From positions 4,064 to 68,063 of the forward strand of contig CAYZRP010000006.1 of the NCBI GenBank assembly GCA_964480865.1: a stretch of 64,000 nt of DNA, written 5' to 3'. Within the stretch, counting starts at the first letter, position 1; each line of letters starts with the position of its first letter. Shown in pieces: positions 30,775 through 63,285 of the stretch. The translations under genes and the position numbers were made by a program. The notes under the pieces were generated by a model. It was not told the origin of the DNA, searched no databases, and saw nothing but the letters and a program-made list of their open reading frames with translations. Source of the stretch: an uncultured Anaerolineales bacterium (GTDB lineage: Bacteria; Chloroflexota; Anaerolineae; Anaerolineales; UBA6663).

Positions 30775-33417
30775 ATGGTAGAACAAGGCAGCGCGCCCGC
30801 TGATCAGCGGGTAAGCCCATCCTGGTGGTCACAGCCGGCCGACGAACTCCTTCAAACACTGAGCCTTGATCCGAAACGAGGGCTGTCTCAGGATCAGGTC
30901 GCCCGGAATCGAGAGCTATACGGCAGCAACCACCTCGGCGAAAACGGGCCAACAAGTCTTTGGGTGCTTCTGGGGGAGAGCGTCAAGTCTCCGATGATGG
31001 TGTTACTCCTGGTGATCGCCGGGATCTCGCTTGCGCTCGGGCAGACGCGTGAGGCCGTCGTGATGGCCGTGGTCGTGGCGATGTACGTCGGCATCCATCT
31101 GCTCAACAAGGCCCGATCGGATCGCACGATGGCCCGGCTTCGGGAGGTGCAGGCACAAAAGGCCACAGTGCTGCGCGCTGGAGATCAGCGGGAGGTTGCG
31201 ATCGACGAGGTCGTCGTCGGCGACATCTTGCCGCTGCGTTCGGGCATCCGGATCCCCGCTGACGCTCGGCTGATCGAGTCGGCCGGCCTGATCGTCAGCG
31301 AGAGTGCACTGACCGGCGAGTCGGCACCGGTCCACAAAGAGGCCGTGGCCGAAGTCCCCGAGAAGGCGCCGCTTGCGGAGCGCCCCACCGCGCTCTTCGC
31401 CGGCACGACCGTGCTGGACGGCGATGGCCACGCCCTGGTCATGGCCGTTGGCGCGCAGAGCGAGCTCGGCCAGGTCGCCGGGCTGTCCACACCGCACGAC
31501 AACGAGCCGACCCCGTTGCAGGCGGAAATGAACGATCTGGCACGAACACTGGCGTTTGTGGCCGTCGGAGTCAGCCTGCTGATCCCGTTGGTGGGCGTGC
31601 TGCGCGGCTTTGACCTCCAGCAAATGATCCTGACCTGGCTGTCATTGACGTTCTTGATGGTCCCTGGCCAGCCCCCCATCATCATCGCCCTGGCTCTGGC
31701 CCTGGCTGCTCTGGAACTGGCGCGCCGGCAGGTCATTGTCCGCCGCCTACAGGGCGCCGAGACGTTGGGATCTGTCAACGTCGTGCTCAGCGACAAAACC
31801 GGAACTCTGACACAGAACAAGATGGAGCTCTCCGGCGTCTTGCTGCCCGACGGAAAGCTGATCCAGTTCAACGATCCGACAGAGAGCGACCGCAACCGGC
31901 TGGTGGAGTTCCTGCGTGCGGCGTTGCCGGCCATCCCACAAAACGCGAATGATCCGACCGACCTGGCCATTGTTCAGGCGGCTGATCGGTTGGGCGATGC
32001 CAAACGAACGCAACAGGGCGTCGTAACGAATGCCCTTGGTTTTTCGCGGACCGGAACGTTTCGCAGCCTCGAGTACCGCCAGAACGGCACCGACCAGGTG
32101 TACCTGACCGGCCGGCCCGATTACCTCATTGATCGATCTGAACACTGGATTCAACCTGACCATGGAATGGACGCGGCGCATGCGTGGAGTCCGAAGGATC
32201 GGGCCGCACTGAAGTCGAGGATCACCGAGTTGGCGGGGCAGGGGAATCGAATGGCGGCCTACGCTCTTCGATCGGGACCCGTGGCGGAGGGTGAGCCGCA
32301 AGGGCTCTCGTTCGTGGGCGTGGCGGTGATCAGCGATCCGATCCGTCCCGAAGTCAAGGGTGCCGTACAAAAGCTCAAGGAAGCCGGCGTGCGAACAGTA
32401 ATGGTTACCGGCGATATTCTGGAGACTGCCGCGTCGGTGGCACGCCAGGTGGGTCTGGACGATCGCAAGCCCGTGGCGGGCAGAGACCTGGAGGGCAAGA
32501 GCCAGGAGGAGCTCGAGGCCATTGTTCAAGAGACGGAGGTGTTCGCCCGGATCGCGCCAGATCAGAAACTGAACCTTGCGCAGGCCTGTCAACGGCTGGG
32601 CCAGGTGGTGGCGGTCACCGGTGACGGCATTAACGATGCGCCCGCCTTGACTGCGGCGCACATCGGAATCGCCATGGGCCAGAAAGGAACCGATGTCGCC
32701 CGGGAGGCGGCTGATCTGGTCTTGACCGATGACAATCTCGCGCACTTGCCGGATGGCGTCGCCATCGGACGCAAGGCCTACGACAATTTCCGTAAGGGGA
32801 TCACCTACTATCTATCTGCCAAAGCGATCCTGTTGACGATCTTTGTCGTGCCGATGCTGGCTGGCGTTCCGTTCCCATTGGCACCGATACAGATCATCTT
32901 CACGGAGCTCTTGATGGACCTGGCCTCGTCGACCATTTTCGTCACGGAAGCGGCCGAGCCTGACGTGATGAAACGTAAGCCCCGCACACGAGGCCGTTTT
33001 CTGACGTGGCAGGTCGCCCTCCGGATCTTGCGAAACATGTCGGGGCTGACGATCGCCATTCTGTTGGTCTACTTCGGTTCGCTGGCCCTGGGTCTGGCGA
33101 TCGACAGCGCCCGCACCGCAGCATTTGCGACCTGGCTTCTTGGACACATCGTGCTGGCGCTCAATCTCAAGCAAGACCGGATACCGCTTCTCCGTCAGGG
33201 CCTGCTGTCCAATCGATTCGCTGCCGCCTGGCTGGCGGGGATGAGCGTCCTTGTCGTCGTCATGACCCTGTTCCCCGGGGCTCAGTCTGTGTTTCAGACC
33301 ACGAGCCTGGAACCCATCCAGTGGGGCATGGTGATTGCCGCCGCTTTGCTGGGGAGCATGTGGATGGAGATCCTCAAGTGGTTACGGCAAGATCGGAATG
33401 ACCACGTAGCCCGTTGA
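30775..33417 (+). CDS. P-type cation ATPase (P2/P3-like architecture) with non-canonical TM4 motif PGQPP
   Basis: ATG at 30775 preceded by GGAGAG. Cation_ATPase_N-like N-terminus. DKTGTLT, TGD and VTGDGINDAPAL motifs. TM4 reads MVPGQPPII where PEGLP is expected. Confidence 0.85.
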   Translation: MVEQGSAPADQRVSPSWWSQPADELLQTLSLDPKRGLSQDQVARNRELYGSNHLGENGPTSLWVLLGESVKSPMMVLLLVIAGISLALGQTREAVVMAVVVAMYVGIHLLNKARSDRTMARLREVQAQKATVLRAGDQREVAIDEVVVGDILPLRSGIRIPADARLIESAGLIVSESALTGESAPVHKEAVAEVPEKAPLAERPTALFAGTTVLDGDGHALVMAVGAQSELGQVAGLSTPHDNEPTPLQAEMNDLARTLAFVAVGVSLLIPLVGVLRGFDLQQMILTWLSLTFLMVPGQPPIIIALALALAALELARRQVIVRRLQGAETLGSVNVVLSDKTGTLTQNKMELSGVLLPDGKLIQFNDPTESDRNRLVEFLRAALPAIPQNANDPTDLAIVQAADRLGDAKRTQQGVVTNALGFSRTGTFRSLEYRQNGTDQVYLTGRPDYLIDRSEHWIQPDHGMDAAHAWSPKDRAALKSRITELAGQGNRMAAYALRSGPVAEGEPQGLSFVGVAVISDPIRPEVKGAVQKLKEAGVRTVMVTGDILETAASVARQVGLDDRKPVAGRDLEGKSQEELEAIVQETEVFARIAPDQKLNLAQACQRLGQVVAVTGDGINDAPALTAAHIGIAMGQKGTDVAREAADLVLTDDNLAHLPDGVAIGRKAYDNFRKGITYYLSAKAILLTIFVVPMLAGVPFPLAPIQIIFTELLMDLASSTIFVTEAAEPDVMKRKPRTRGRFLTWQVALRILRNMSGLTIAILLVYFGSLALGLAIDSARTAAFATWLLGHIVLALNLKQDRIPLLRQGLLSNRFAAAWLAGMSVLVVVMTLFPGAQSVFQTTSLEPIQWGMVIAAALLGSMWMEILKWLRQDRNDHVAR

Positions 33418-33585
33418 GTGGCTGTCCCTGGACCTCATCTCGGATGTCGCGAAGCCTCGTGGTTCGCCTCTCGGGTGAATCTGGTACACCGCATTGAAGT
33501 ATGCTCCCGGTGACCCGACTGTTGGACGAGTCGAGAAACCTTGCTGTTCGAGGTGCGCAATTGAGAATCATTCTACAGTCTGACG

Positions 33586-33614
33586 TTGACATGCCCTTGA
33601 AGTAGCCGTACAGT
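33586..33614 (+). promoter_or_regulatory. sigma70-like promoter of sRNA copy B
   Basis: TTGACA (33586-33591), a 17-nt spacer, then TACAGT (33609-33614). Confidence 0.6.
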
Positions 33615-33620
33615 AAGCCC

Positions 33621-33797
33621 CAACAACATCGATTGCCGGGCTCCCCACAACCCCACCTCTCCGGGTTATCCCTGCGCCGTGGCTCTACGGTCTGAAATCG
33701 CGCGGCGACAGGATGGCAACTCATAACCCGGAGGTCGTAGGTTCGAATCCTGCCCCCGCTACTGAAAGGCCGTGATCTTGCGATCGCGGCCTTTTTC
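33621..33797 (+). ncRNA. unclassified small RNA with tRNA-fMet 3'-half tail, copy B
   Basis: Aligns with copy A end to end, with a few substitutions and a 1-nt insertion. The terminator stem 33768-33777/33782-33791 is followed by TTTTT. Confidence 0.7.
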
Positions 33798-33845
33798 TTG
33801 GCCAGCTGTTCTTCTCCACGTTCAGTACGTGCAAAGGCAAGAACC

Positions 33846-34724
33846 CTATAGGCCTTCTTGTTCATCGAGCATTCGGCGAGCCATTCCCAAAGGCTCGCCG
33901 ACGTACGCGTAGATCTTCTCAACGACGGTGGCCAGTGAAGGCGCCTCGAGCCCATTCTTGGTTAAGAACGCCTCCCACTGAGTTGTTCTCTCTGAGTCTG
34001 TCGAGTACTCAGCGGTGAGGCCCAGGGGAGTCGTGGGTGGCAAGGTCGTGGCCCGCCGACGAAACGTCGCCGCGATCGCTGAGGCGATCTCGGTCGGATC
34101 GAGGGTGTTTTCGGCGGCAAGGACGTACAGGTCAAAGTAGTCTTTGAGGCGCGTGTTGGCCATGCCGAAACTGACGATGATCTCAAGTTTCTCGGCGATG
34201 ACGGTGGCACGGGGATACGTCCGCAGTTCGACGGGCGGAAGATCGGGCAATAACGAGGGAAGGCTCGCTTCGACGGGCCCGGGCGTCACGGCATCGCCGA
34301 AGCCAATATCCAGTTGCACCGTGATCCGGGCACTGCCAAGCTTTCCGACGAGCCGGACGCGTAGCCCCTGGTACCGCGATGCCTCACGGATCTCCTCGAT
34401 CCGAGCGGTGGTCGGATCAAAGGTCATTCCATCCGCCGTGTCGACGGCGCAGGCCGCGTGGATCACTCGTTCCAGACTCTGAGCACTCCAATCACCGAGG
34501 CCAAGCAGGTCCGCGTCGCGTGTCGGACGATGAGGGGTATCGAACCACAGTTCAAACAAAAGAGCGCCCTTCAGAAGAAAGGTGTGGCGTTCAGGAAGCT
34601 GTGTGAGACGGTAGAGAAATCGCTCAAGCGCAAACCGTGTCAGAACGAGATTGAAGTCCTCGCGGCGTTGTCGAGCGAGACTCAGCAAACGCGCATGAAT
34701 GGACGCGGCGTTTGGGGTCGTCAT
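33846..34724 (-). CDS. abiEii: AbiEii/AbiGii-family nucleotidyltransferase toxin (DUF1814)
   Basis: ..FALERFLYRL..LLKGALLFELW..RPTRDADLLG.. matches the DUF1814 NTase family. A 4-nt ATGA overlap links it to the upstream antitoxin gene. Confidence 0.85.
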   Translation of the reverse strand: MTTPNAASIHARLLSLARQRREDFNLVLTRFALERFLYRLTQLPERHTFLLKGALLFELWFDTPHRPTRDADLLGLGDWSAQSLERVIHAACAVDTADGMTFDPTTARIEEIREASRYQGLRVRLVGKLGSARITVQLDIGFGDAVTPGPVEASLPSLLPDLPPVELRTYPRATVIAEKLEIIVSFGMANTRLKDYFDLYVLAAENTLDPTEIASAIAATFRRRATTLPPTTPLGLTAEYSTDSERTTQWEAFLTKNGLEAPSLATVVEKIYAYVGEPLGMARRMLDEQEGL

Positions 34725-35320
34725 GCGAGCGACTCCAGGTACGGGCGCATGACATTGGCGACGCGCTGCAGCCTGGCGTATCGCCAGAGGTCATCCAGAC
34801 GAATGTGGCGATCGCGATAGGCCTCACGCAGGGCTTCGATGGCCACCTCAAGCCCGATCTTGTTCCTGAACTTGAAACAGTCCACCACGGTCCGGGCCGG
34901 GTTGGTCAGCCGGATCGTCACGCCATCCACTTTGCGGGCCTCGACTCCCTCCACAAGCGCTTGCGCCGAGAACCGCACCGCGCGGAGCGGGGGATAGGCT
35001 ATGCGAGGCGGGTAATCCTTGTTCGCGATGGCGATCCAGACTTCGTGCGGCGCTTGGGTTGTCAGGTCATGTAGGCGTAGGGCGGTTAGCAGGCAAAAGA
35101 CCACCTCGGGTTTTCGGCCAGCCACCAGTGCGACGGCGCCATGTTCGCCGAGTTGATGGTCCGGAAGCGCATACACGCCACGATCGACGGGGACGAGAAC
35201 GCCTGCGCGTTTCAGGCGCGTGATCTGGCTGCGTGTCAGGCCCTTGGCGACAAGATCTCGGGATCGTGCGGTCCCCTGACGGGCGAGCCAGTTGCGGAGA
35301 GGAGCCGTGAGATCTGTCAT
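34721..35320 (-). CDS. abiEi: AbiEi-family type IV antitoxin / transcriptional autoregulator
   Basis: ATG at 35320 (MTDLTAPLRNWLARQGTARSRDLV..RLKRAGVLVPVDRGVY), an N-terminal wHTH. The track ORF's 36-aa extension runs through the operator palindrome and is rejected. Confidence 0.8.
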   Translation of the reverse strand: MTDLTAPLRNWLARQGTARSRDLVAKGLTRSQITRLKRAGVLVPVDRGVYALPDHQLGEHGAVALVAGRKPEVVFCLLTALRLHDLTTQAPHEVWIAIANKDYPPRIAYPPLRAVRFSAQALVEGVEARKVDGVTIRLTNPARTVVDCFKFRNKIGLEVAIEALREAYRDRHIRLDDLWRYARLQRVANVMRPYLESLA

Positions 35321-35328
35321 AGGGGAAT

Positions 35329-35376
35329 TGTTCCATAGTTTCGGTAAATGCGCAAATTTACCGAAACTATGGAACA
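35329..35376. promoter_or_regulatory. perfect 21-bp inverted repeat (candidate AbiEi operator)
   Basis: TGTTCCATAGTTTCGGTAAAT (35329-35349), spacer GCGCAA, then ATTTACCGAAACTATGGAACA (35356-35376). It begins 9 nt upstream of the abiEi start. Confidence 0.65.
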
Positions 35377-35455
35377 GTTCGATTAAGGCCTTCTCCTGGC
35401 TACATCCCGATTCGCGTAAGGGCTTCAAGACGTGAGCGATCTACTCCTCGGGGCG

Positions 35456-35484
35456 TTGACAATTGGTGGAAGAGGCCGTAGTGT
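35456..35484 (+). promoter_or_regulatory. sigma70-like promoter of sRNA copy C
   Basis: TTGACA (35456-35461), a 17-nt spacer, then TAGTGT (35479-35484). Confidence 0.6.
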
Positions 35485-35490
35485 GTTTGC

Positions 35491-35680
35491 CAACAACATC
35501 GATTGCCGGGCTCCCAACAACCACACCTCTCCGGGTTTTCGCTGCGCCGTGGCTTTACGGTCTGAAGTGCGCGGCGACAGGATGGCAACTCATAACCCGG
35601 AGGTCGTAGGTTCGAATCCTGCCCCCGCCCGAAATACAGAAGGCTCGCCTCTGGATGGAGGCAAGCCTTCTTGTTCGTTC
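35491..35680 (+). ncRNA. unclassified small RNA with tRNA-fMet 3'-half tail, copy C
   Basis: Near-identical to copies A and B up to CCTGCCCCCGC. It then has a different terminator (AAGGCTCGCCTC/GAGGCAAGCCTT, 35640-35669) followed by CTTGTTCGTT. Confidence 0.7.
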
Positions 35681-35793
35681 TCCTGACAGTGTCCAGGGTC
35701 TTGCACCGGAGCTTATTGCCGTTAGTTCTGTTGTCCATCGTGGCCCGTTGCCACACTGTTCTGTGCCAGGCGACGAGGTTGGATAGGCTTGTC

Positions 35794-37086
35794 CTAGGTT
35801 GGCGACAACAGCCAATCGGCAATGGACTGCACATGAATCGTGCCGGCGGACACCGAAATGGGCGCAGCGTTGACATTCGTCAGCAAGAGCCCCGCCGGGA
35901 GGTTCAAGGCCCGCATACCCTCATCCAACGACCGTAGCTCGCGTTCGCGGGTTGTCGGTTGGTCAATCGAAGCGGAAACTTGGATGAGCAGCTTCTTCTC
36001 GGGCACATAGAAGTCCACTTCCTGGCCTGATGGCGCCGCCCAATAGTACACACTCTGTTCGAGTCGCCTCAGCGCCAAAAACACAAGGTTCTCAAGCAAG
36101 TGGCCAGTGTTTGGAGACGCGGCGTAACCAACGGCCTGAGTCAAACCGGTATCAATGGCATAGACTTTTTTGGGCGCGATCTGCTGGCGCCTGACAGATG
36201 GATCATAAACGTTCGTCGTGAGGAGCAGCCAGCTGTTTTCCAGATACTCGATGAAATTCTTGACTGTGTTGACGCTACCGAGTTGCAGCTGCGCTTTCAG
36301 TTTGTTGAAAGAAATTAACCGAGAGGGATTGCTCATCAGGTAGAAAGCCAATTCCTTCAGTTCGCGCACGGCTTCCAATCGATAACGTGTCGCAATGTCG
36401 CGGTAAAGCACGTCTTCATACAAACGGCGTCTCAAATCGATCTCCGGATATCTCAGGAACTCCGGCAAGCCCCCTTGGCGAAGATAATCGGCGAGCAAAC
36501 CCTGCAAGCGGCCTGCATCGGCGGTGGTGCGTGGTGTCGGGAAGGGGGCGTCGACGCCGCGCCAGTGGAGATACTCGCCAAACGAAAACGGAAACAGCTC
36601 GACCTGCTGGTAGCGACCGGTCAAGCGTGTGCCCAGTTCGCCACTCAACAGGGCCGCATTGGAGCCCGTGATGAAGAATTTGTGCCCGAGGTCCATAAAG
36701 CGGCGCACGAATCGCTCCCAACCCGGGATGTTCTGGATCTCATCGACGATGAAGATGCGCCGTTCGCCATAGAGCTCAACCAGGTGTTGATAGAGGTGGG
36801 AAGCGTCATCCGCTTGGAAGCCCAGGAAACGATCGTCTTCGAAGTTGATGTAATAGAAGCGTTCCTCGCCCAACCGGTGAGCGAGCTGGGCCAAGAGCGT
36901 GGACTTGCCGACCCGGCGCAACCCAGAGATGATGACCGCATGCGGGATGGTTTCGGCTTTCATGACTTCACTCAACCGATCGCGCACAAGGCCGACATCT
37001 CTGCTCCAAAAGGCCTGACGCTGTTCAATCAACATGGCTTTGAGTTGATCAGGATCCCATTTGGCTCGCCAATTGTTTTCATTCAT
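35794..37086 (-). CDS. AAA+ ATPase with DUF4143 domain (COG1373-like)
   Basis: Walker A GLRRVGKST and Walker B IFIVDEIQ. C-terminal DUF4143-like region. Confidence 0.8.
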   Translation of the reverse strand: MNENNWRAKWDPDQLKAMLIEQRQAFWSRDVGLVRDRLSEVMKAETIPHAVIISGLRRVGKSTLLAQLAHRLGEERFYYINFEDDRFLGFQADDASHLYQHLVELYGERRIFIVDEIQNIPGWERFVRRFMDLGHKFFITGSNAALLSGELGTRLTGRYQQVELFPFSFGEYLHWRGVDAPFPTPRTTADAGRLQGLLADYLRQGGLPEFLRYPEIDLRRRLYEDVLYRDIATRYRLEAVRELKELAFYLMSNPSRLISFNKLKAQLQLGSVNTVKNFIEYLENSWLLLTTNVYDPSVRRQQIAPKKVYAIDTGLTQAVGYAASPNTGHLLENLVFLALRRLEQSVYYWAAPSGQEVDFYVPEKKLLIQVSASIDQPTTRERELRSLDEGMRALNLPAGLLLTNVNAAPISVSAGTIHVQSIADWLLSPT

Positions 37087-37107
37087 AGTGAAATAATATT
37101 ACAAATA

Positions 37108-37128
37108 GTTTTCATTGTCAATGAAAAC
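37108..37128. promoter_or_regulatory. palindrome GTTTTCATTG-T-CAATGAAAAC upstream of the ATPase gene
   Basis: Perfect 10-bp arms in an AT-rich patch, 22 nt upstream of the 37086 start. Confidence 0.35.
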
Positions 37129-37292
37129 AATAGCATTCCGCCAGGGTCAGCTGCGACCCCATAGCCAGGCTCTTCGCTATAGGGTGAGCGTCCTGAGGCG
37201 AAAGTGACCTAATTGCCATTAGGTCCAGAGGATAGGACTCGGACTGATACTAGAGAAATGGATTTCGACGTTCAGTATGTCTGCGCGAGCTG

Positions 37293-37859
37293 GTGCAGGC
37301 CGGCCTGGCTGCTGGCGAGGATCCGATGGTCCTCATGGCGGACTGCCGGGAGGGCATGGCCGGCGTCGGCAAGCGCTACGAAAGCGGCGAGTACTTCGTC
37401 TCGGACCTGATCATGGCTGGCGAGGTCTTCAAGGAAGTCATGGCCCTGATCGGCACTCGCTTCCAGGGCGACACCGGCACCAAACGCGGGGCCGTCGTGG
37501 TCGGGACGGTCAAGGGTGACATCCACGACATCGGCAAGGACATCGTCGTCAGCCTGCTGCGCGCTGGGAACTACGACGTGGTGGATCTGGGCGTGAACGT
37601 GCCGGCGGAGAAGTTCGTCGAGTCTGTGCAACAAAGCGGGGCTTCAGTGGTCGGCCTCTCCGGGCTGTTGACGATCTCGTTCGACGCCATGAAAGAGACG
37701 GTGGCGGCCCTGGCCGCGGCCGGGCTTCGCGAGAAGGTCAAGATCATGGTCGGCGGTGGGCCTGTCAACGAACAGGTGCGCGAGTTGGTCGGCGCTGACG
37801 CGCTGGGCGGGGACGCTCAGGCGGCGGTGAACCTCTGTGACATGTGGATCGCAGCCTAA
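37293..37859 (+). CDS. cobalamin-binding corrinoid protein (MtaC/MtbC-like), N-terminus short or uncertain
   Basis: B12-binding motif GDIHDIGKDIV (DxHxxG) and a helical cap ..LVQAGLAAGEDP... The frame opens only at 37254 after a TAG stop, and the first usable start is GTG at 37293. Confidence 0.7.
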   Translation: MQAGLAAGEDPMVLMADCREGMAGVGKRYESGEYFVSDLIMAGEVFKEVMALIGTRFQGDTGTKRGAVVVGTVKGDIHDIGKDIVVSLLRAGNYDVVDLGVNVPAEKFVESVQQSGASVVGLSGLLTISFDAMKETVAALAAAGLREKVKIMVGGGPVNEQVRELVGADALGGDAQAAVNLCDMWIAA

Positions 37860-37871
37860 GGAGAAGAGAAC

Positions 37872-39005
37872 ATGGAAAACGTGGCGCTGATGGAAGAACG
37901 CCTTGAGCGCATCCGCAAAGTCATCCGGTTCGAGCCGGTCGACCGTCTGCCGATCATCCAGAACGCCTCGGCCTGGGGGCCGCGCTACACCGGCCATACC
38001 GTGGCCGAGTTCTGCACCGTCAACGAAGCCTCAGCCCGGATCACGATCGAAGCGATGGACAAGCTTGGCGGCGTGGACGGAGTCAATATGGCGATGGTCG
38101 GGCGCACCCCGGCGATTCTGACCACCGCCTGGCTGTCGCGCATCGGCGTGCCCGGCCGCGATCTGCCGCCCGACAGCCTGTGGCAGGTGCGCGAGGCCGA
38201 GGTCATGACGCTCGAGGACTACGACACCATCCTTGAGAAGGGCTGGCCGGCGTTCCTCGACGGCTATATGCCGCGGGTGATCGACCCGGCCGACCTGGGC
38301 GACGCCCTGGGCTTTCTGATGGGCAACCTGAACCCGATGCTGCAGACGTACCACCAGCACGGCTATGTCACCATGGCCTCGACGGCGATCGCGACGCCGT
38401 TCGACTACCTGTGCGGCGGCCGATCGATGTCGCGGTTCTTCGTCGATCTGCACCGCATACCGGACAAGATCCAGGCTGTCATGGACGTCAGCCTTCCGGC
38501 CATCATCGGCCAGGGCATCGGCATCTCGAAGTCAGCCGGTGTGCCCGGCATCTGGATCGGCGGCTGGCGCACGGGGAGCGCGCTTGTGGCGCCGAAGCTG
38601 TGGAACCGCTTTGTCTGGCCGTATCTGGTGCAGTGCGTGCACGTTGTCGCGGCGGCGGGCCTCATCCCGATCTTGCACCTGGATCAGGACTGGACGCGTG
38701 ACCTAGCCCGGTTCCGCGAGTTGCCAGCCAAGACCTGCGTGATGAACCCTGACGGCCTGACCAGCCCGACGAAGTTCAAGGAGATCCTGGGCGATCACAT
38801 GACGTGGATGGGCGACACGCCCGCCACCCTGTTCGCGGCCGGCACGCCGGATGACATCTACGCCTACGTGCGCGATCAGGTCCAGCTGTTTGAGGGCCGC
38901 GGCCTCATCATCGCCCCCGGTTGCGATGCTCCGATCAACACGAAAACCGAGAACATGGAGGCCTTTGTCGCGGCCGCGAAAGAATTTGGCGCGGTGACGG
39001 CGTAG
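37872..39005 (+). CDS. uroporphyrinogen decarboxylase-family methyltransferase (MtaA/CmuA-like)
   Basis: 377 aa, URO-D-like, 12 nt after the corrinoid protein gene. This is the typical pairing in a corrinoid methyltransfer system. Confidence 0.7.
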   Translation: MENVALMEERLERIRKVIRFEPVDRLPIIQNASAWGPRYTGHTVAEFCTVNEASARITIEAMDKLGGVDGVNMAMVGRTPAILTTAWLSRIGVPGRDLPPDSLWQVREAEVMTLEDYDTILEKGWPAFLDGYMPRVIDPADLGDALGFLMGNLNPMLQTYHQHGYVTMASTAIATPFDYLCGGRSMSRFFVDLHRIPDKIQAVMDVSLPAIIGQGIGISKSAGVPGIWIGGWRTGSALVAPKLWNRFVWPYLVQCVHVVAAAGLIPILHLDQDWTRDLARFRELPAKTCVMNPDGLTSPTKFKEILGDHMTWMGDTPATLFAAGTPDDIYAYVRDQVQLFEGRGLIIAPGCDAPINTKTENMEAFVAAAKEFGAVTA

Positions 39006-39090
39006 GGAGGACAGTCACAATAGACACGAATTCACGGCGAATGGGCGCGAGGGACGCGTGGCGATGGTCCCAGGTCTCGGGTATGTGATT

Positions 39091-39176
39091 GGCGCTCATC
39101 ACGCAGAGGTCGCAGGTTGGAATCCAGTCTTCCGCTGGAAAAACACAAGGCCCGCCTCTGGATGGAGGCGGGCCCT
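39091..39176 (+). repeat. degenerate relic (R1) of the sRNA/tRNA-fMet tail plus copy-C-type terminator
   Basis: GGCGCTCATCACGCAGAGGTCGCAGGTTGGAATCCAGTCTTCCGCT aligns with the tRNA-like tail. The hairpin GGCCCGCCTC/GAGGCGGGCC and the next ~60 nt (CTTGTTCGTTCTCCTGACA..) are homologous to 35640-35740. Confidence 0.6.
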
Positions 39177-39230
39177 CTTGTTCGTTCTCCTGACATTATC
39201 CCAGGTCATGCATTAGAGCTACTTACCATT

Positions 39231-39305
39231 GGGTCCGGTGTAGAGCAAAGGCAGCACGTCGGGCTGTTCCCTCGGAGGTCGTCAGTTCGAATCTTGTCCC
39301 CGCTA
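39231..39305 (+). pseudogene. decayed initiator tRNA-Met gene (R2)
   Basis: ..GTAGAGCAAAGGCAGCACGTCGGGCTGTTCCCTCGGAGGTCGTCAGTTCGAATCTTGTCCCCGCTA keeps a tRNA-fMet-like D region and GTCGGGCT. The anticodon loop (CTGTTCC), the T-stem and the acceptor pairing are all broken. Confidence 0.55.
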
Positions 39306-39311
39306 CTTGAA

Positions 39312-39345
39312 AGGCCTGGATCTTGAAGAGATCCGGGCCTTTTTG
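39312..39345 (+). terminator. intrinsic terminator after R2 (homologous to copy B terminator)
   Basis: GGCCTGGATCT / AGATCCGGGCC forms an 11-bp stem with one G-U pair, followed by TTTTTGTTTG. Confidence 0.6.
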
Positions 39346-39818
39346 TTTGTCTCACCAGCCTGCTTGGCGCCCATAACCGGCGGGTCGAAGGTCCGAATCT
39401 CAGTTGGAGCGAATTGTGACCATCAGACTGCTCACACGTGGGCTGATCAATTTGGTTTGCCTCAACGAAACAGCGCGGCCAATAGCCGGTCGCTGCGTCG
39501 ATCGCGGTGGTGTGGTCGCGAGACGCCGATCCACGGCCACAACCTCAGTCATAGACCCAGATCCAGATAGGTTTCGTGACCCGGACAAACGAGCTGCAGG
39601 ACCCTGGCGGATATCGTCGGTTGGACGCGATACTCCGTGGTTGAACCCGTGTGCCTGTTGGCCGCCGACGAAGCATGTCCGATCCAGAAAAGGCGCCCAC
39701 CTCCTTAGAGGCCAATGCCCGATGCCCGGGTCAACGGCGGAGTGAACTTCATTACAATGGGCGTAACCGGACGTATCCGTTGAGGCCGCTCCCTATCGGA
39801 GCCAGCAGGGCGCTGACG

Positions 39819-43403: not shown

Positions 43404-43653
43404 GGTGGGTCCTTTTCTCGATCGGATGGATCGCCCTGACAACCCTATGACGCGCGACAGGCCCGACCTTGGACACTTGGGAGCGCCCACATATCGCCCT
43501 GACAGGATGATCGTCCACCGTTCGGGTGAGAAACGTCAGTGTAACCCGAAGTCTGATCGCGGGCATCCTAGTTAGGGCCTGACCCGCGCAGCATGGCTCT
43601 CGTTGCCAACCGTGCCTGGAGCAGACGTGCGTACTCCTTCTTTGTCCCACTTC

Positions 43654-45228
43654 ATGGATGCAATCCTGGCTGTGCCGGTCCAGTACAAGATCATCGGCAT
43701 TGTGATGCTGCCCGTGTTGATCCTGGGCTTGACGCTCAATTACTGGATTACCACGGGGCTTTCCGACTGGCTGTCCTACTTCGTCATGGATCAGCGTGTG
43801 CAGGCAGCGATGGCGAACGGCAGCCGCAGCGTTCTGCTGGTGACGCTGCTCTCGGCCGCGGGCAGCATCGTCTTCGCTTACCTGTTGATCTTTTTGCTCA
43901 CCCGACCCCTGGCCGAGCTGCGCCAGGTGGCCGAGGACGTCAGCACGGGCCGCCTCGACGCCCGCGCCCGTGTGTACACCGACGACGACATCGGCAAGGT
44001 GGCCGGCTCGGTCAACACGATGCTCGACCGTCTGGTCGAGACCCAGCGCAGCCTGGGGGAGGCCAACCAGCGCCTCGAAGTGATGAACCGTGTCGCGATG
44101 GCCGCCGGCCGCGAGCAGGAGCTCCCGGAAGTGCTCGACGCGATCCTGCAGGGCTTCGAGCATCTCGGGCTCGATCGTGGGTGGATCTATCTGCGCGACA
44201 GCGACACCGGCGCGTTCTATCTGGCGCACCAGCGCAACCTACCTAAGGAGGCGCTCGTGCACCTGGCCGCGCAGGATGATGGGCCGGCCCTGTGCGCGTG
44301 CCAGAAGGATCTCGTTGGCGCGGGCCTCGACCACGCCATGATGCGGACCTCGTGTCGTCGGCTCGGCCAGGCGATCGGCGACGATACCGCCACGCACATC
44401 AGCATCCCGATGACGGCGCGCGGCCAGGCGATGGGGATCGTCAACCTGTGGTGCCCGGACGGCTACGCGCCCAGCTCGGCGGACTTCGACATGCTCACCG
44501 CGACGGGGACTCAGGCGGCCGAAATCGTCAGCAATGCCTGGTTACGCGCGCGTCTTGTGGAGAAGGAAGCCGCGCGCCGCGCCCTGCTCGAATCTCTGGT
44601 GCGCACACAAGAGGCCGAGCGATCGCGTCTGGCGCGTGAGCTGCACGACGGCGCCGGGCAGACCCTGACGACGTTGCTGGTGCGGCTCAAGGCCCTCGAA
44701 CGCCAGGCCAGCGGATCCCAACAGGCCGATCTGGCGCGCCTGCAGGAGCTTGTCGCCGACAGCATCGAACAGGTGCGCGATCTGTCGTACCAGCTGCGGC
44801 CCGCAACGCTCGAGGAGTTCGGCCTCGCCCGCGCGCTGGACCATCTGGTGAACGAGACCGTGCGCCAGGCCGGACTGGAGGTGGTGACCCAGCTTCACAT
44901 CCGACGCAGCCTGCCGGGCGAGGTCGAGACCGCCCTGTATCGCATCGCCCAGGAGGGGCTTGCCAACATCCTCAAGCACGCGCACGCCTGGAAGGTCGAG
45001 GTCGAGCTCCTCGAGACGCCGTTCGGCGTGGCGCTGCGCATCGAGGATAACGGCCGCGGCTTCGACCCTTCGACTGTCGCTCAACGTGCTGACCGCCCAC
45101 ATCTGGGCCTGATCGGCATGCAGGAGCGGGTCGAGCTGCTCGGCGGGTCGCTAACCGTGGAGGCCGCTCCCGGCGCCGGGACCTCGGTGCAGGTGCGCAT
45201 CCCGATCCTCGAGGGAGAGGGGACATGA
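43654..45228 (+). CDS. sensor histidine kinase (TM-HAMP-GAF-HisKA_3-HATPase)
   Basis: ATG at 43654 (a TTG at 43603 is also possible). HAMP domain, GAF-like middle region, H-box ARELHDGAGQTL, ATPase box EDNGRGF. Confidence 0.85.
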   Translation: MDAILAVPVQYKIIGIVMLPVLILGLTLNYWITTGLSDWLSYFVMDQRVQAAMANGSRSVLLVTLLSAAGSIVFAYLLIFLLTRPLAELRQVAEDVSTGRLDARARVYTDDDIGKVAGSVNTMLDRLVETQRSLGEANQRLEVMNRVAMAAGREQELPEVLDAILQGFEHLGLDRGWIYLRDSDTGAFYLAHQRNLPKEALVHLAAQDDGPALCACQKDLVGAGLDHAMMRTSCRRLGQAIGDDTATHISIPMTARGQAMGIVNLWCPDGYAPSSADFDMLTATGTQAAEIVSNAWLRARLVEKEAARRALLESLVRTQEAERSRLARELHDGAGQTLTTLLVRLKALERQASGSQQADLARLQELVADSIEQVRDLSYQLRPATLEEFGLARALDHLVNETVRQAGLEVVTQLHIRRSLPGEVETALYRIAQEGLANILKHAHAWKVEVELLETPFGVALRIEDNGRGFDPSTVAQRADRPHLGLIGMQERVELLGGSLTVEAAPGAGTSVQVRIPILEGEGT

Positions 45229-45887
45229 GCGCGCAACCGCTGCGGATCGTCCTCGTCGACGACCACCAGATCCTGCGGGACGGCATCCGGGTGCTGCTCG
45301 AGGGTGAGCCCGGCGTTCGAGTGATCGGCGAGTGCGGCTCGGGCGTCGAGGCGCTTGAGTTGTGCGCGCGCGAGCAGCCCGACCTTGTCGTCCTCGACCT
45401 GAGCCTGCCCGACATGAGCGGGCTCGACGTCCTGCATCAACTCCAGGAGAAACAGCCGGCCGTGCGCGTGGTGGTGCTGTCGATGCACACCCAGCGCGAG
45501 TTCGTCCTGCAGGCCCTGGCCGGTGGCTGCGCGGCCTACGTGCCCAAGGCCACGGCCCACACCAGCCTGGTCGAGGCGATCCAGGCGGTGCGGCGCGGCG
45601 AGCGCTTCCTGCACCCCAAGGTCGCGGCCGTCCTGCTCGAGTCCTTTGGCGGCGACATGAGCGAAGTCCAGCAGTTCCAGGCGCTGTCGGACCGCGAGCG
45701 GGACGTGCTGCAGATGACGGCCTGGGGTTTCAACAGCCGCGAGATCGGCGAAAAGCTGGCCCTCAGCCCCAAGACCATCGAGACCTATCGGCAGCGCGCC
45801 ATGGAGAAACTCGGTCTTGAGCACCGGACGGATCTGATCCGCTTTGCCCTGCGAGCCGGCATTCTGGGCGAGCACGGCCCGGGCTGA
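45225..45887 (+). CDS. response regulator, NarL/LuxR family
   Basis: Receiver domain plus LuxR HTH (LSDRERDVLQMTAWGFNSREIG). Overlaps the kinase stop by 4 nt. Confidence 0.85.
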   Translation: MSAQPLRIVLVDDHQILRDGIRVLLEGEPGVRVIGECGSGVEALELCAREQPDLVVLDLSLPDMSGLDVLHQLQEKQPAVRVVVLSMHTQREFVLQALAGGCAAYVPKATAHTSLVEAIQAVRRGERFLHPKVAAVLLESFGGDMSEVQQFQALSDRERDVLQMTAWGFNSREIGEKLALSPKTIETYRQRAMEKLGLEHRTDLIRFALRAGILGEHGPG

Positions 45888-45995
45888 TCCCAACGGGTCC
45901 ACTCATTGCGCAACCCGAAGGAATCAGCGCGGGAAGCGGGTGCTCCGCCTGTCCCTTCCCGGCATGGCTGTGCAGTTCCGCCGGGTCGGGAAAAT

Positions 45996-46025
45996 CCGGA
46001 CAGGATTTCAGGTTTCGCCGGACAG
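45996..46025 (+). promoter_or_regulatory. direct repeat CCGGACAG x2 (22-bp phasing) upstream of rdhA
   Basis: CCGGACAG at 45996-46003 and 46018-46025. The first copy overlaps the inverted repeat AAATCC-N5-GGATTT. The sites lie about 100-125 nt upstream of the rdhA ATG. Confidence 0.3.
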
Positions 46026-46122
46026 AGAATCGGGTCTTTCCGCTCAGAGCGTTGCGTCGAAACCGTTACAGTCGTATCGACCCCTGGTCACAACGTATTC
46101 ATCATACCCAAGGAGGGAGTCG

Positions 46123-47544
46123 ATGAGCGACACAGACAAGGCCAAGCGGAAGTTTGGCCGACGAGAGTTCTTCAAGATGGCCGGCCTTGGCACCGGCGCG
46201 GCGGTGGCCGCGTCGTCGCTGCAACCGGTCAAGACGGCCAACGCCTCGGCCGCGCCGTACACGGATCCCGCTGGCCGGCCGGCCCGCCCGTGGTGGGTCA
46301 AGACGGTCGATCAGCCCACGACCGAGATCGACTGGGCCAAGATGAAGCGCTACAACGAGCGCTACGTCCAGGAAGAGGGCGCGGGCACGGTGCGCGGCGG
46401 CGGGTTTGCCGGTTATCTCGGCAAGGAAGAAGCCGAACGCCTGGTCAAGATGGGCGACGACAAGAACCTGCAACGGATCCGCGACAACGTCGACGGCTAC
46501 ACGCTCAAGGACTTCGCCCTGAGCGCCGGTCAGTCGGCCACAAGCGTCGGGCGCAGCTTCCTGGGCCCGCAGAAGGCCCAGACCCCCGAAGAGCGCGGCG
46601 TTCCGGCCTGGAAGGGCACGCCGGCCGAAGCGGCCAAGATGCTCCGCGCGGCGATGCGGCACATGGGCGCCTCGACGATCGGTTTCGTCGAGCTCGATGA
46701 CAACACCCGCAAGCTGATCTACTCGATCGATCCCGACGGGCACATCATGGAGTTCACCGACGACCCGGTGGCCTCCGAGACCGAGACGCATCGCTACATC
46801 CCCAATAGCTGCAAGTACGCGATCGTCTACACGGTCCAGATGTCGGAAGAGGCGATGAAGCGCTCGCCCACGATGACGGCTTCGCAGACGACGACCGGCG
46901 CGTATTCGCGCGGCGCGCAGATCGCGGCCGGCACCCAGGAGTTCCTGCGCTCGCTCGGATATCAGTGCCTGAGCGAGGCGTCGACAAACGCACTGGGCAT
47001 CGCCCCGGCCTTCGGTGTGCTCGCCGGCCTGGGCGAGATGTCGCGCATGAACCGCATGATCTCGCCCGAGTTCGGGCCCATGGTGCGCGTCTTCAAGATG
47101 CTCACCGATCTGCCGGTCGAGGTCGACAAGCCGATCAACGCCGGGATCATGGAGTTCTGCAAGTCTTGCAAGAAGTGCGCTGAGGCGTGCCCGTCGGGCG
47201 CCCTGAGCTTTGAGAGCGAGCCGTATTGGGAAACCAAGGGCGGCTGGAACAACCCGGGTCACAAGGCCTGGTTCGAAGACGCCGTCAAGTGCCGCACGTA
47301 CTGGGTCTCAGAGGCCGGCACGAACTGCGGCATCTGTTTCGGGGTGTGCCCGTTCTCCAAGAAGGACAAGGCCTGGATCCACGACTGGGTCAAGGCCGGC
47401 ACAAGCAGCGCTCCGTTCCTCGCGTCCTTCTTCCGCAGCATGGACGATGCCTTTGGGTACGGCGTCCAGAAGAGCGGCGAGGAATGGTGGAACCTGGATC
47501 AACCGGAATACGGCGTTGACAGTTCGATTGTCGTGAAGGGGTGA
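46123..47544 (+). CDS. rdhA: reductive dehalogenase catalytic subunit
   Basis: ATG at 46123 preceded by AAGGAGGGAG. Tat signal RREFFKMAGLG. Fe-S motifs CKSCKKCAEACP and C-x13-CGICFGVCP. Confidence 0.85.
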   Translation: MSDTDKAKRKFGRREFFKMAGLGTGAAVAASSLQPVKTANASAAPYTDPAGRPARPWWVKTVDQPTTEIDWAKMKRYNERYVQEEGAGTVRGGGFAGYLGKEEAERLVKMGDDKNLQRIRDNVDGYTLKDFALSAGQSATSVGRSFLGPQKAQTPEERGVPAWKGTPAEAAKMLRAAMRHMGASTIGFVELDDNTRKLIYSIDPDGHIMEFTDDPVASETETHRYIPNSCKYAIVYTVQMSEEAMKRSPTMTASQTTTGAYSRGAQIAAGTQEFLRSLGYQCLSEASTNALGIAPAFGVLAGLGEMSRMNRMISPEFGPMVRVFKMLTDLPVEVDKPINAGIMEFCKSCKKCAEACPSGALSFESEPYWETKGGWNNPGHKAWFEDAVKCRTYWVSEAGTNCGICFGVCPFSKKDKAWIHDWVKAGTSSAPFLASFFRSMDDAFGYGVQKSGEEWWNLDQPEYGVDSSIVVKG

Positions 47545-47548
47545 GGCC

Positions 47549-47767
47549 ATGAAGTCCTATACGCTTCAAATCGCAAAGCGCCCGTGGTACGAATGGGCGT
47601 TGTGGGTGGTGTGGTTCCTGGTCGAGATCTTTATCCTGCAGAACGCGATCGCCAGCGGCGCCGAGCTTGAGCCGCGCGCGGCCTCGATCTTCTGGATGAC
47701 CTTCATCGTCCTGTTGTTGGGCGGTGGCATCGTCTGGTTCGTGCGACGCGCGCGCCTGGCGAAGTAA
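47549..47767 (+). CDS. rdhB: reductive dehalogenase membrane anchor-like protein
   Basis: 72 aa with two hydrophobic helices. Starts 4 nt after the rdhA stop. The position and size are typical of RdhB. Confidence 0.65.
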   Translation: MKSYTLQIAKRPWYEWALWVVWFLVEIFILQNAIASGAELEPRAASIFWMTFIVLLLGGGIVWFVRRARLAK

Positions 47768-47797
47768 TTCCGCTCGAAGGCAAGCGTCTGATATCTG

Positions 47798-47823
47798 GAG
47801 AGGAAGGGCGATCCCTTCCTCTC
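47798..47823 (+). terminator. perfect 11-bp hairpin after rdhB (attenuator/stabiliser or weak terminator)
   Basis: GAGAGGAAGGG-cgat-CCCTTCCTCTC followed by CTTTC. It lies between rdhB and rdhC. Confidence 0.45.
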
Positions 47824-47838
47824 CTTTCGGCTACAGAG

Positions 47839-49071
47839 ATGACATCGATCCCGCCGACAGCCCCCGAGACCGATCGCGCCCCCGCCGGGCCGCGCGCCGA
47901 AAAATCGCGCCGCCAGCGCTGGCTGGTGCTCGCCACCCTGCTCGCCGTCGTGGCGGCCTGGGTCTATGGATGGCTGACGGCGGGCTTCGACGTGGCGCCC
48001 GAGGCCCTGGCGGCCATCGCCGGCGCCACCCGGGTTGAGGCTCGCGGTTCGATCTACTACGGCTACGACGGCGCCGGGCAGTTGGTCGGCTATGCGGGGA
48101 AGGGCGAGGCGCCGGGCTACGGCGGCCCGATCACGCTTGTCGTCGGGCTGGATCTCGCCGGCGCCGTGACCGAGGTGCGGGTCGTTCAGCAGCGCGAGAC
48201 ACCCAGCTTCTTCAGGCTGCTGGATCGCGAGGGCTACTACGACCAGTTCCAGGGTCAGCCGTACGACGCGAACTTCCAGCTCGGCCAGGGCATCGACGGA
48301 GTCAGCGGCGCGACCTTCAGCGCCGATGGCGTCGCCGCGGCGACGCGGCAGGCCATCCGGTCCGTGGCAGCCGAGGGTCTCGGGCAATCGCTGCCCGCCG
48401 ACGATGTCCCGATCCGTTTCGGCATCCCAGAAGTCGTCCTCATCCTGCTGTACGTTGTCGGCTACATCGGACACCGCCTGCGCAGCGCCCTCTGGCGCAC
48501 ACGTGTGCGCTGGGCGACGCTCCTGACCGGCCTTGTTGTCGTCGGCTTCATCTACACCATGCCGTTCACGATCACGCAGGTCGTATCGCTTCTCAGCGGC
48601 TACTGGCCCGACTGGCGCACCAACCTGTACTGGTACCTGCTCCTGGGCGGCATCGCCTTCGTCACGACGGTCGACGCCAAGAACCCGTACTGCAGCTGGT
48701 TCTGCCCGTTCGGAGCCTTTCAAGAGTGCCTGGGCACGATCTCGGGCGCGAAGCTGTATCGTCCCAGACAATGGGCTTCTGCGCTCACCTGGCTCCAGCG
48801 CGGGTTGGCCGGTGTGGCCATCGTGCTGGGGCTGGCGCTACGCCGACCGGGCGTGGCCGGGTATGAGCCCTTTGGCACGCTCTTCGATCTGCGCGGCACG
48901 ACCGTGCAGTGGGCCTTCCTGCTGCTCGTCGTGCTCGCCAGTCTTGTGATCTACCGACCGTTCTGCAACTACCTGTGCCCGATCGACCCCGTGGTGGAGT
49001 TCATCGCCGAGGTCCGGCGACAGGTCCGGGAAGGATGGCGCCGATGGCAGAGCCGCCACGCAAAGATCTGA
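47839..49071 (+). CDS. rdhC: RdhC/PceC-like membrane flavoprotein (FMN-binding domain + NosR/NapH-type polytopic Cys-motif domain)
   Basis: FMN_bind motif GIDGVSGATFS, about six TM helices, and the motifs CSWFCPFG and CNYLCP. Confidence 0.75.
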   Translation: MTSIPPTAPETDRAPAGPRAEKSRRQRWLVLATLLAVVAAWVYGWLTAGFDVAPEALAAIAGATRVEARGSIYYGYDGAGQLVGYAGKGEAPGYGGPITLVVGLDLAGAVTEVRVVQQRETPSFFRLLDREGYYDQFQGQPYDANFQLGQGIDGVSGATFSADGVAAATRQAIRSVAAEGLGQSLPADDVPIRFGIPEVVLILLYVVGYIGHRLRSALWRTRVRWATLLTGLVVVGFIYTMPFTITQVVSLLSGYWPDWRTNLYWYLLLGGIAFVTTVDAKNPYCSWFCPFGAFQECLGTISGAKLYRPRQWASALTWLQRGLAGVAIVLGLALRRPGVAGYEPFGTLFDLRGTTVQWAFLLLVVLASLVIYRPFCNYLCPIDPVVEFIAEVRRQVREGWRRWQSRHAKI

Positions 49072-63250: not shown

Positions 63251-63279
63251 TTGATATATGCCCAGCCGGGCTGTACTGT
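63251..63279 (+). promoter_or_regulatory. sigma70-like promoter of sRNA copy D
   Basis: TTGATA (63251-63256), a 17-nt spacer, then TACTGT (63274-63279). Confidence 0.55.
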
Positions 63280-63285
63280 ATCTGC

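Follow-up and report, generated by a model that had tools for sequence, protein, structure and literature searches.

The abiE operon of an Anaerolineales contig as the probable cargo of a small defence islet at an initiator-tRNA-derived attachment site

The stretch of 64,000 nucleotides analysed here (the window), from an uncultured Anaerolineales bacterium, contains an abiEi-abiEii toxin–antitoxin operon between two directly repeated copies, B and C, of a putative transcription unit that occurs four times in the window (copies A to D, all on the + strand). The operon is probably the cargo of a small, integrase-less, low-GC defence islet, located at an attachment (att) site derived from initiator tRNA. 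The repeated unit carries a 40-nt core corresponding to the 3' half of an initiator tRNA-Met (tRNA-fMet) gene, and the DNA that carries abiE begins at the 5' edge of this core. The repeats would thus bracket abiE because it is cargo between two cores, and its position would be traced to an initiator-tRNA-derived recombination hot spot, in place of an unsupported account in which the toxin and the repeat RNA act together. The att-bearing unit is unusual: instead of a tRNA gene, it is a chimera with its own promoter and terminator in which the initiator-tRNA 3' half is perfectly preserved; at least three types of 5' module are found, and the four copies within 64 kb lie on one strand between accessory blocks.

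The initiator-tRNA core and the DNA joined to it

Each unit measures about 215 nt and consists, as predicted from its sequence, of a sigma-70 promoter, a 5' module of about 100 nt, the 40-nt core and a rho-independent terminator; the RNA element itself is about 145 nt long. The copies were located by sequence comparison and with a profile hidden Markov model (HMM), which was trained on copies A, B, C and D and on the single copy carried by L009, an Anaerolineales metagenome-assembled genome (MAG); its matches (E = 1e-44 to 7e-51) are strong by construction. An earlier sequence-only reading of this DNA had called the element a tRNA-like small RNA (sRNA). A tRNA 3' half is present, but the unit is not a plain sRNA gene; it is a chimera of promoter, 5' module, core and terminator. 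The interval singled out by that reading extends from the -35 hexamer of copy B (33586) through the end of the copy C terminator. Units were found at the following positions:

5746-5960, + strand, copy A from promoter to terminator (promoter 5746-5774, RNA from about 5780 and matched at 5780-5924, core 5879-5918, T_A terminator)
33586-33799, + strand, copy B from promoter to terminator, a direct repeat of copy C (RNA 33620-33765)
35456-35679, + strand, copy C from promoter to terminator, a direct repeat of copy B (RNA 35490-35630)
63251-63468, + strand, copy D from promoter to terminator, divergent (about 83%; promoter TTGATA-17-TACTGT, RNA 63285-63428, core 63384-63422, terminator 63429-63458)

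The two units that flank abiE are built from these segments:

33586-33614, + strand, promoter of copy B (TTGACA, 17-nt spacer, TACAGT; 10/12 consensus matches)
33620-33719, + strand, 5' module of copy B, called A-type (88-93% identity to A, C and L009)
33720-33759, + strand, putative recombination core of copy B, CTCATAACCCGGAGGTCGTAGGTTCGAATCCTGCCCCCGC, equal to the initiator tRNA-Met 3' half
33765-33799, + strand, terminator of copy B, T_A type (in the fold, a hairpin of 13-14 bp followed by a U run)
35456-35484, + strand, promoter of copy C (TTGACA, 17-nt spacer, TAGTGT; read from sequence and alignment, below the threshold of the consensus scan)
35490-35588, + strand, A-type 5' module of copy C (alignment, profile HMM)
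35589-35628, + strand, core of copy C, identical to the copy B core
35639-35734, + strand, terminator and flank of copy C, T_X type (78% identity to 39132-39241; hairpin in the fold)

The promoter hexamers TTGACA (TTGATA in copy D) and TAnnnT are kept with their 17-nt spacing in the four window copies and in L009, the spacer sequence varies, and strong conservation starts about 6-8 nt past the -10 hexamer. A consensus promoter scan picks up the promoters of A and B. The 5' module of copy B comprises a CA-rich leader, GCCGGGC, CCUCUCCGGGUU and a GCGCCG...CGGCGC hairpin that holds GGUCUGAA. Among A, B, C and L009, identity is 100% in the core, 88-93% in the 5' module, 52-77% in the promoter and about 45-55% in the upstream flank. 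Zero divergence of the core, set against 7-12% in the adjoining 5' module, would fit recurrent exchange at this segment as well as stronger selection acting on it. The T_A sequence of copy B recurs after a genuine tRNA-fMet gene in locus L018 and after a different unit in contig L001 (both described below), and the terminator and flank of copy C differ from the terminators of A, B and D.

As the sequence-only reading had claimed, B and C lie in direct orientation about 1.87 kb apart (1,870 bp from start to start; 1,869 bp between cores) and are about 95% identical over 140 nt, a figure that compares the L001 version of copy C with the window version of copy B. Their longest exact common run, at 33700-33759, is 60 nt, and exact runs common to the copies span 60-68 nt. 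Identity in the 5' module is 90% for B-C, 93% for A-B, 92% for A-C and 92% for C-L009. A and L009 match B and C as closely as these match each other, and B and C are therefore not a recent duplicate pair.

The 40-nt core (CTCATAA...CCCCCGC) covers the anticodon loop CUCAUAA, the 3' strand of the anticodon stem (CCC), the variable loop, the T arm GUAGG-UUCGAAU-CCUGC and the 3' acceptor strand. It is identical in A, B, C, L009, the L001 unit and the L018 tRNA gene (40/40 nt), and the core of copy D has 6 changes (CTCGTAA). The T stem covaries among types of the family (GUAGG/CCUGC vs GCUGG/CCAGC). L018 provides the reference for the assignment: its tRNA-Met is genuine (ARAGORN; Rfam tRNA, 61.4 bits), and it has the initiator hallmarks of a GGG/CCC anticodon stem and a 1:72 mismatch, as read from the sequence. 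Plasmid and phage blastn searches gave matches confined to the tRNA-Met 3' half. One of these, in Arthrobacter phage Brynnie, is intergenic and 2.4 kb from the phage integrase, a location suggestive of an attP site, although it is no evidence for the present case.

In L018, a gene for an AbiEii protein that is 76% identical to that of the window converges on the tRNA-Met gene, and from CTCATAA rightwards the two loci are 97% identical over 585 bp (33720-34304), a stretch that comprises anticodon loop, T arm, acceptor strand, terminator, spacer and the C-terminal half of abiEii. Left of CTCATAA, L018 has the tRNA 5' half and the window has the A-type 5' module. A third partner is seen in L001, an independent MEGAHIT contig (k=127 assembly) that encodes an identical AbiEii. 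L001 and the window have only about 33720-37222 in common, at 99.7% identity. This 3.5-kb block contains the tRNA 3' half with its terminator, abiEii, abiEi, a complete copy C and a gene for an ATPase of the PDC-S01 type. Left of CTCATAA, L001 has a promoter (TGGACA, 17-nt spacer, TACAAT) and a different, X-type, 5' module; its unit scores 26.6 bits against the Rfam tRNA model, below the gathering threshold of 29, with a 16-nt insertion in the anticodon loop. Thus, abiE-side DNA from CTCATAA (33720) onwards is joined to three different 5' partners, the A-type module in the window, the X-type module in L001 and the tRNA 5' half in L018, and all three junctions lie at the 5' edge of CTCATAA. Sequence identity starts at the same point, so that homologous recombination would give the same picture. 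Genes and boundaries of the block are:

33846-34724, - strand, abiEii, DUF1814 nucleotidyltransferase toxin of 292 aa (PF08843, 1.1e-44; PADLOC AbiEii, 7.8e-95)
34721-35323, - strand, abiEi, antitoxin and transcriptional regulator of 200 aa (PF13338, 1.5e-10; PADLOC AbiEi, 4e-75)
35325-35380, unstranded, 25-nt inverted repeat by the abiEi start (arms 35325-35349 and 35356-35380, 96% complementary)
35794-37086, - strand, AAA_14/DUF4143 ATPase, a candidate defence gene (PADLOC PDC-S01, 2.5e-102; PF13173, 2.9e-36; PF13635, 1.5e-18)
37222/37223, unstranded, right end of the block shared with L001, where the 99.7% identity ends

Beyond the block, 45 nt past its end, L001 carries a decayed tRNA 3' half and a T_A-like terminator (score 69 vs a shuffle maximum of 40). 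On the window side, a decayed 5' module suspected by eye at 37100-37222 was discarded because its alignment score equals that of shuffles.

5' modules and terminators have been reassorted across the core. Three kinds of 5' part (tRNA, A-type and X-type) and three kinds of terminator (T_A, T_X and T_L009) could form nine combinations, and seven of these are seen, or five of six if T_A and T_L009 are counted as one:

tRNA 5' part with T_A: L018
tRNA 5' part with T_L009: R2
A-type 5' part with T_A: A, B, D and L012
A-type 5' part with T_X: C
A-type 5' part with T_L009: L009
X-type 5' part with T_A: L001
X-type 5' part with T_X: R1

Copy C, with an A-type 5' module and an X-type 3' flank, and the left unit of L001 are reciprocal hybrids. 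Mis-joins at the 40-nt repeat appear unlikely as the source of this pattern, because D, R1 and R2 have diverged, L009 comes from a hybrid long-read assembly and L001 from a k=127 assembly. R1 and R2, together with a third fragment, R3, are decayed relatives of the unit located to the right of the shared block:

39063-39241, + strand, R1, decayed X-type unit (unit 39063-39135; CTCATCA...) with T_X terminator and flank (alignment)
39236-39345, + strand, R2, decayed full-length tRNA-fMet pseudogene (pseudogene 39236-39308) with an L009-type terminator (alignment)
39365-39400, + strand, R3, decayed 3'-half fragment (GGCGCCCATAACCGGCGGGTCGAAGG...), which aligns with the remnant downstream of the L009 copy (nhmmer E = 0.066)

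R1 is 82.5% identical to the X-type unit of L001 (nhmmer E = 0.0025). R2 has an anticodon loop mutated to CTGTTCC and is 84% identical to L018 986-1075 (nhmmer E = 1.5e-4), and the R2 terminator and R3 match the terminator and downstream remnant of the L009 copy. Displaced, decayed fragments are thus present at 39063-39400, downstream of the L009 copy and after the L001 block; one more lies past copy D (by eye).

A recurrent second fragment of a related kind, GGCGCTCATAACC.GCGGGTC, is found about 25 nt past the terminator of several copies, and its left edge resembles the X-type module. It is seen at 63472-63505 and 39365-39400 in the window, at 4728-4757 in L009 and possibly at 5962-6000 in the window. 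Since it recurs at this distance, the duplicated unit apparently incorporates the scar, about 110 nt long, of an earlier integration.

These observations are most simply explained if the 40-nt core is the place where DNA is exchanged, by a logic known from genomic islands at tRNA and tmRNA genes and from their accretion in tandem. Recombination between two units, or between a unit and a real tRNA gene, would join the 5' part of one partner to the 3' half, terminator and cargo of the other, and an inserted segment would thereby become flanked by two complete direct copies resembling attL and attR. Both products would be complete units because both partners are complete units, as the reciprocal hybrids suggest. 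Recombination between the cores of B and C would yield a circle of 1,869 bp with abiE and one hybrid unit, the other hybrid staying in the chromosome. Exchange could be catalysed by a tyrosine integrase provided in trans, or by RecA through the 60-nt identical run; the RecA-type route is no more likely than a site-specific one at an att core in the anticodon loop. The A-type unit itself might be a host gene used as attB or an attP-borne end of such islets. The proposal of the sequence-only reading that the repeats make the toxin–antitoxin module a cassette, gained or lost by homologous recombination, is supported in substance. The segment exchanged, however, would be the 40-nt tRNA 3' half and not the whole 145 nt, and what another genome has in common with the window is the 3.5-kb unit including copy C and the PDC-S01 gene, not abiE alone.

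The abiE operon and the accessory blocks of the window

abiEi and abiEii are the sole genes between B and C and lie on the opposite strand, as the sequence-only reading had stated; the gene calls are backed by GC content at third codon positions (GC3), Pfam and PADLOC. The two genes overlap by 4 nt and form one operon, in which an AbiEi helix-turn-helix (HTH) antitoxin adjoins an AbiEii nucleotidyltransferase, the arrangement that defines AbiE. The gene calls of L001 place the abiEi start at the same position. By analogy, the 25-nt inverted repeat next to this start is probably an autoregulatory operator of AbiEi; Hampton et al. 2018 reportedly described AbiEi autoregulation in Streptococcus agalactiae, which is the basis of this assignment. 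Close AbiEii homologues are widespread, those of about 60% identity including proteins named as from Burkholderiales and Gammaproteobacteria MAGs. The toxin gene is a mosaic: compared with L018 (window 33720-34724 vs L018 45-1047), the part at 33720-34304 is 97% identical and the remainder, with the N-terminal half of the toxin, about 55%, which points to recombination within the gene or to a conserved island end that takes in half of it.

The block looks foreign. GC3 is 0.68 in abiEii, abiEi and the PDC-S01 gene vs 0.75-0.88 in neighbouring genes, window GC is 0.57-0.60 across 32-38 kb vs 0.62-0.69 elsewhere, and the genes are of defence type. Between the shared block and the decayed tRNA-fMet fragments, at 37293-39005, lies a pair of genes for a B12-binding protein and a URO-D/MtaA-like methyltransferase, with a native-like GC3 of 0.86-0.88; this pair is missing from the L001 locus.

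Copy A has a TnpB fragment on one side and a cytochrome c gene on the other, and copy D lies downstream of a gene for an extracytoplasmic function (ECF) sigma factor. A gene survey around both copies confirmed the earlier statement that neither has a toxin gene as neighbour. The TnpB fragment is a truncated IS605-type OrfB/TnpB gene (4460-5137, - strand; PF01385, 1.7e-13), 640 nt upstream of copy A. The idea that copy A is a TnpB omega-RNA was rejected, since the fragment is on the other strand and its 3' end faces away from copy A.

The interval between A and B (6000-33400) is mostly metal-related, with genes for a cytochrome c/COX2-like protein, PCYCGC, DUF6803 and multicopper oxidase, an HMA-type P-type ATPase, cupredoxin, DUF305, a chromate transporter and three two-component pairs. 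This metal-resistance cluster is island-type cargo between two att-like units. The interval between C and D contains a reductive-dehalogenase-like gene (45844-47544; PF13486, 7.6e-36) within 43603-50295, preceded by a pair of histidine kinase and LuxR-type regulator genes and followed by FMN_bind/Fer4_5 and ApbE genes. The spacings from A to B (27,840 bp) and from C to D (27,795 bp) are almost equal. A segmental duplication as their origin was rejected, the intervals having only response-regulator paralogues in common, and the near-equality is probably due to chance.

The only integrase genes linked to the family are found in a distant relative. L010 and L011, obtained in a metagenome scan, represent a distant type of the family, in which another 5' module precedes the same 3' half and the T stem covaries. 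L010 encodes a tyrosine integrase (PF00589, 1.1e-34; 1899-2909) on the same strand, about 40 nt past the RNA terminator, and a second integrase-family open reading frame (ORF) at 720-1844, whose score (1.7e-07) is just above Pfam's cut-off; a third integrase-like ORF is apparent, by eye only, upstream from about 4083 onwards. These genes may form a tandem array or a recombinase trio. The L010 stretch (1-4807), where they surround a single tRNA-fMet-half RNA gene, also carries a MerR/excisionase-like ORF (305-787).

Alternative explanations

Several observations weigh against an islet at a tRNA-derived att core. None of the approximately 55 window ORFs scanned encodes a Phage_integrase, resolvase or excisionase domain, so that site-specific exchange would depend on an enzyme whose gene lies elsewhere or was present formerly. 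Breakpoints at the core edge cannot separate site-specific from homologous recombination. Ordinary integration into a tRNA gene (tDNA) leaves a 3' fragment, whereas here complete promoter-bearing units flank the cassette; an extra assumption is required, namely a complete unit as attP or an array that grew by accretion. In the window, the block ends on the right (37222) at no recognisable core (alignment score 19, shuffle-like), and the L001 remnant begins 45 nt beyond the end of the shared block. Only the source assembly documents the join of the ATPase gene left of copy B, the copy B 5' module and abiE. Finally, the reassortment table is small, with only about 10 family members known, and T_A and T_L009 could represent a single terminator that has diverged. 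A search for relatives with the ATPase gene followed by one copy found neither an empty site nor a B-C recombinant. The collection contains a shorter, 807-aa version of this ATPase from the source contig (P0121), and the orthologues of 71-72% identity (L020-L025) show no synteny and have no RNA or tRNA downstream.

The first rival explanation, that B and C are ordinary paralogous sRNA genes of the host, is unlikely. abiE would then have come between them by an unrelated route, and the repeats would matter merely as a possible substrate for RecA-mediated deletion. The kept promoter hexamers and spacing with variable spacers, and a conservation that starts sharply near the predicted transcription start, argue for expressed genes under selection and suit this view, as do the lack of a fresh B-C duplication and the surroundings of A, D and L009, where no obviously mobile neighbours are found save the TnpB fragment near A. 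However, paralogy gives no account of why abiE-side DNA starts exactly at the tRNA core, of the three different 5' partners, of the X-type terminator and flank of copy C with its reciprocal hybrid in L001, or of a 100% identical core beside a diverged 5' module.

We assign a similarly small probability to a further idea: the chimeric units (A-, X- and L010-type) could be an undescribed class of expressed RNA genes within att sites, with a function of their own. A promoter-bearing 5' module would be fused by recombination to an invariant tRNA half, each event rewiring the transcribed module, and the RNA might mimic initiator tRNA or act as its decoy towards tRNA-targeting defence toxins such as AbiEii, or might sense or regulate the integration state. 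If expressed with a role of its own, it would add a new kind to the bacterial RNAs derived from tRNA.

Searches for known RNA families gave no match to the A-type RNA. ARAGORN in tRNA and tmRNA (transfer-messenger RNA) modes finds no genes in the window, and no tmRNA even at a relaxed threshold; relaxed settings give only inconsistent calls with 'introns'. No Rfam match was obtained at the gathering threshold, nor at E <= 10 across 33400-35800, and neither Rfam nor ARAGORN identifies a tmRNA or a Y-RNA-like (YrlA) mimic. Because ARAGORN and Rfam do not call them, tRNA-based island finders overlook the chimeric units. For the core RNA, single-sequence folds do no better than shuffles (z = -0.1 to -1.0), the higher z-scores of the full-length RNA stem from the terminator, and RNAalifold on five copies gives no compensatory pairs, leaving the tRNA-like fold without covariation support. 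An extended pairing between the CA-rich 5' segment and the T-arm strand was dropped, as it is broken in B and D.

It is quite improbable that the arrangement is an assembly artefact, in which the ATPase gene and the copy B 5' module were mis-joined to the abiE block at a multi-copy repeat, the true left flank of abiE being another unit such as the X-type unit of L001. The exact runs common to the copies could permit such an error. All Logan contigs end inside the repeat (the short independent contigs L002-L008 among them), and L001, the sole independent contig across the left junction, has a different partner; the lack of RNA downstream of the ATPase orthologues would also agree with a mis-join. 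Yet L001 departs from the window on the right as well, at the non-repeated position 37222, and independent contigs L013-L015 confirm the window arrangement there, which argues that L001 represents a different strain, or a second genomic context, and not a correction of the window. Even with a mis-joined 5' module, abiE would still have a tRNA-fMet 3' half on one side and copy C on the other, since abiE, copy C and the PDC-S01 gene form one uninterrupted stretch in L001.

The sequence-only reading had further suggested that the RNA is a substrate mimic, decoy or specificity element of AbiEii, which would mean that it presents its T arm and acceptor-side tail to the toxin and is kept beside it by selection. 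MenT-type DUF1814 toxins do add nucleotides at the 3'-CCA end of tRNAs (PMC7450476, PMC10435456; bioRxiv 10.64898/2026.01.19.700257). The RNA holds an intact T arm and 3' acceptor strand of tRNA-fMet, and two copies flank the operon. The distribution of the RNA does not follow that of abiE, however. Only two of the eight copies with readable flanks (B and C) are beside abiE; the remaining six (A, D, L009, L010, L011 and L012) are without it. Conversely, three of the four nearest abiE relatives lack the RNA: the L016/L017 and L019 loci, whose AbiEii proteins are 72-74% identical, have neither such an RNA nor a tRNA, and at the identical junction the fourth, L018, carries a genuine tRNA, which is the outcome expected of an integration site. 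The survey of co-occurrence proposed with the decoy idea thus gave no enrichment of the RNA by DUF1814 genes and revealed abiE loci without flanking copies, in a small sample. The repeat family is rare with the patterns used here, and enrichment statistics are therefore weak: a strict pattern matched one locus (L009) in a collection of 185,579 species genomes, a looser pattern three loci in a metagenome collection, and three patterns gave no match in viral contigs. Moreover, CCA is absent from the encoded RNA, in which ACUG follows the acceptor strand and precedes the terminator, the 5' acceptor partner is imperfect, and neither the folds nor the ARAGORN and Rfam searches described above yield a tRNA. 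The decoy hypothesis is unsupported rather than disproved, and a functional partnership between RNA and toxin is very improbable.

Comparison with known systems

Williams 2002 is said to give a scheme of att sublocations within tRNA genes. The islet reading agrees with tDNA islands in many respects. Such islands split the tDNA and regenerate it from their own 3' part, the displaced fragment staying behind at the opposite end, and an anticodon-centred attP was found by Islander in 2,083 of 3,919 islands (PMC4383910). Like them, the window locus has an identity block from the anticodon loop to the tRNA 3' end, cargo-side DNA that brings the 3' half and terminator completing the unit, displaced and decayed 3' fragments downstream in direct orientation, and defence cargo of foreign composition. 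The pattern of a regenerated target and a displaced fragment that Islander looks for is present, as the cores of B and C bound abiE, R1-R3 are all on the + strand and L001 has a fragment of its own. Only the distant relative L010 has an integrase gene there, immediately past the target. Unlike in tDNA islands, the target in the window is a promoter-driven chimera, the 5' two-thirds of which are unrelated to tRNA, complete units instead of a bare 3' fragment flank the cassette, several types of 5' module have one core in common, and neither the islet nor the 64-kb window encodes an integrase.

Tandem accretion and cis-mobilizable elements (CIMEs) have been described at ssrA in Dehalococcoides, also Chloroflexota (PMC3146451), and streptococcal CIMEs are reviewed in PMC5704250. 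As in these systems, att repeats on the same strand recur at island-scale spacing with accessory cargo between them (in the window, the metal-resistance cluster, abiE, PDC-S01 and the reductive-dehalogenase-like gene), some units have att on both sides but no recombinase, and a composite of abiE, copy C and PDC-S01 is common to another genome as one block. The layout of window 43603-50295 recalls the reductive dehalogenase (rdh) clusters of the Dehalococcoides ssrA islands. The B-C interval, with abiEi and abiEii only, has att on both sides and no genes for recombination or transfer, which is the hallmark of a CIME; the block is found in a second context (L001), and the left end of abiE at a true tRNA (L018). 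Since it has no integrase, the islet does not qualify as an autonomous island and is best classed as a remnant without an integrase or as an element of the cis-mobilizable type. In Dehalococcoides, a serine recombinase acts on repeats that are 20-bp ends of ssrA, whereas the window repeat is a 40-nt tRNA-fMet half within a unit of about 215 nt; the enzyme and any present-day mobility of the cassette are putative. If the units are real attL/attR junctions, the window would be a tandem accretion array on tRNA-fMet in Anaerolineales. A conserved, unannotated, complete 'tRNA-Gly-like structure' is mentioned together with the integration module of the ssrA islands (PMC3146451), and it may be a parallel to the RNA-like units at the att sites described here.

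The window module resembles other AbiE systems in its two overlapping genes, the AbiEii nucleotidyltransferase and AbiEi HTH domains and a predicted inverted-repeat operator; the one unusual feature detected is the mosaic abiEii. AbiE is not known to have an RNA component, and the present analysis supports none.

sRNA genes are also integration hot spots, as exemplified by the Salmonella ryeA/ryeB locus and by tmRNA. The window shares with them a non-coding RNA gene other than a tRNA gene as landing site, but its RNA gene is derived from a tRNA 3' half, is multi-copy and has interchangeable 5' modules. tDNA-type island accretion at such chimeric, non-tRNA units would be a variant of established island biology.

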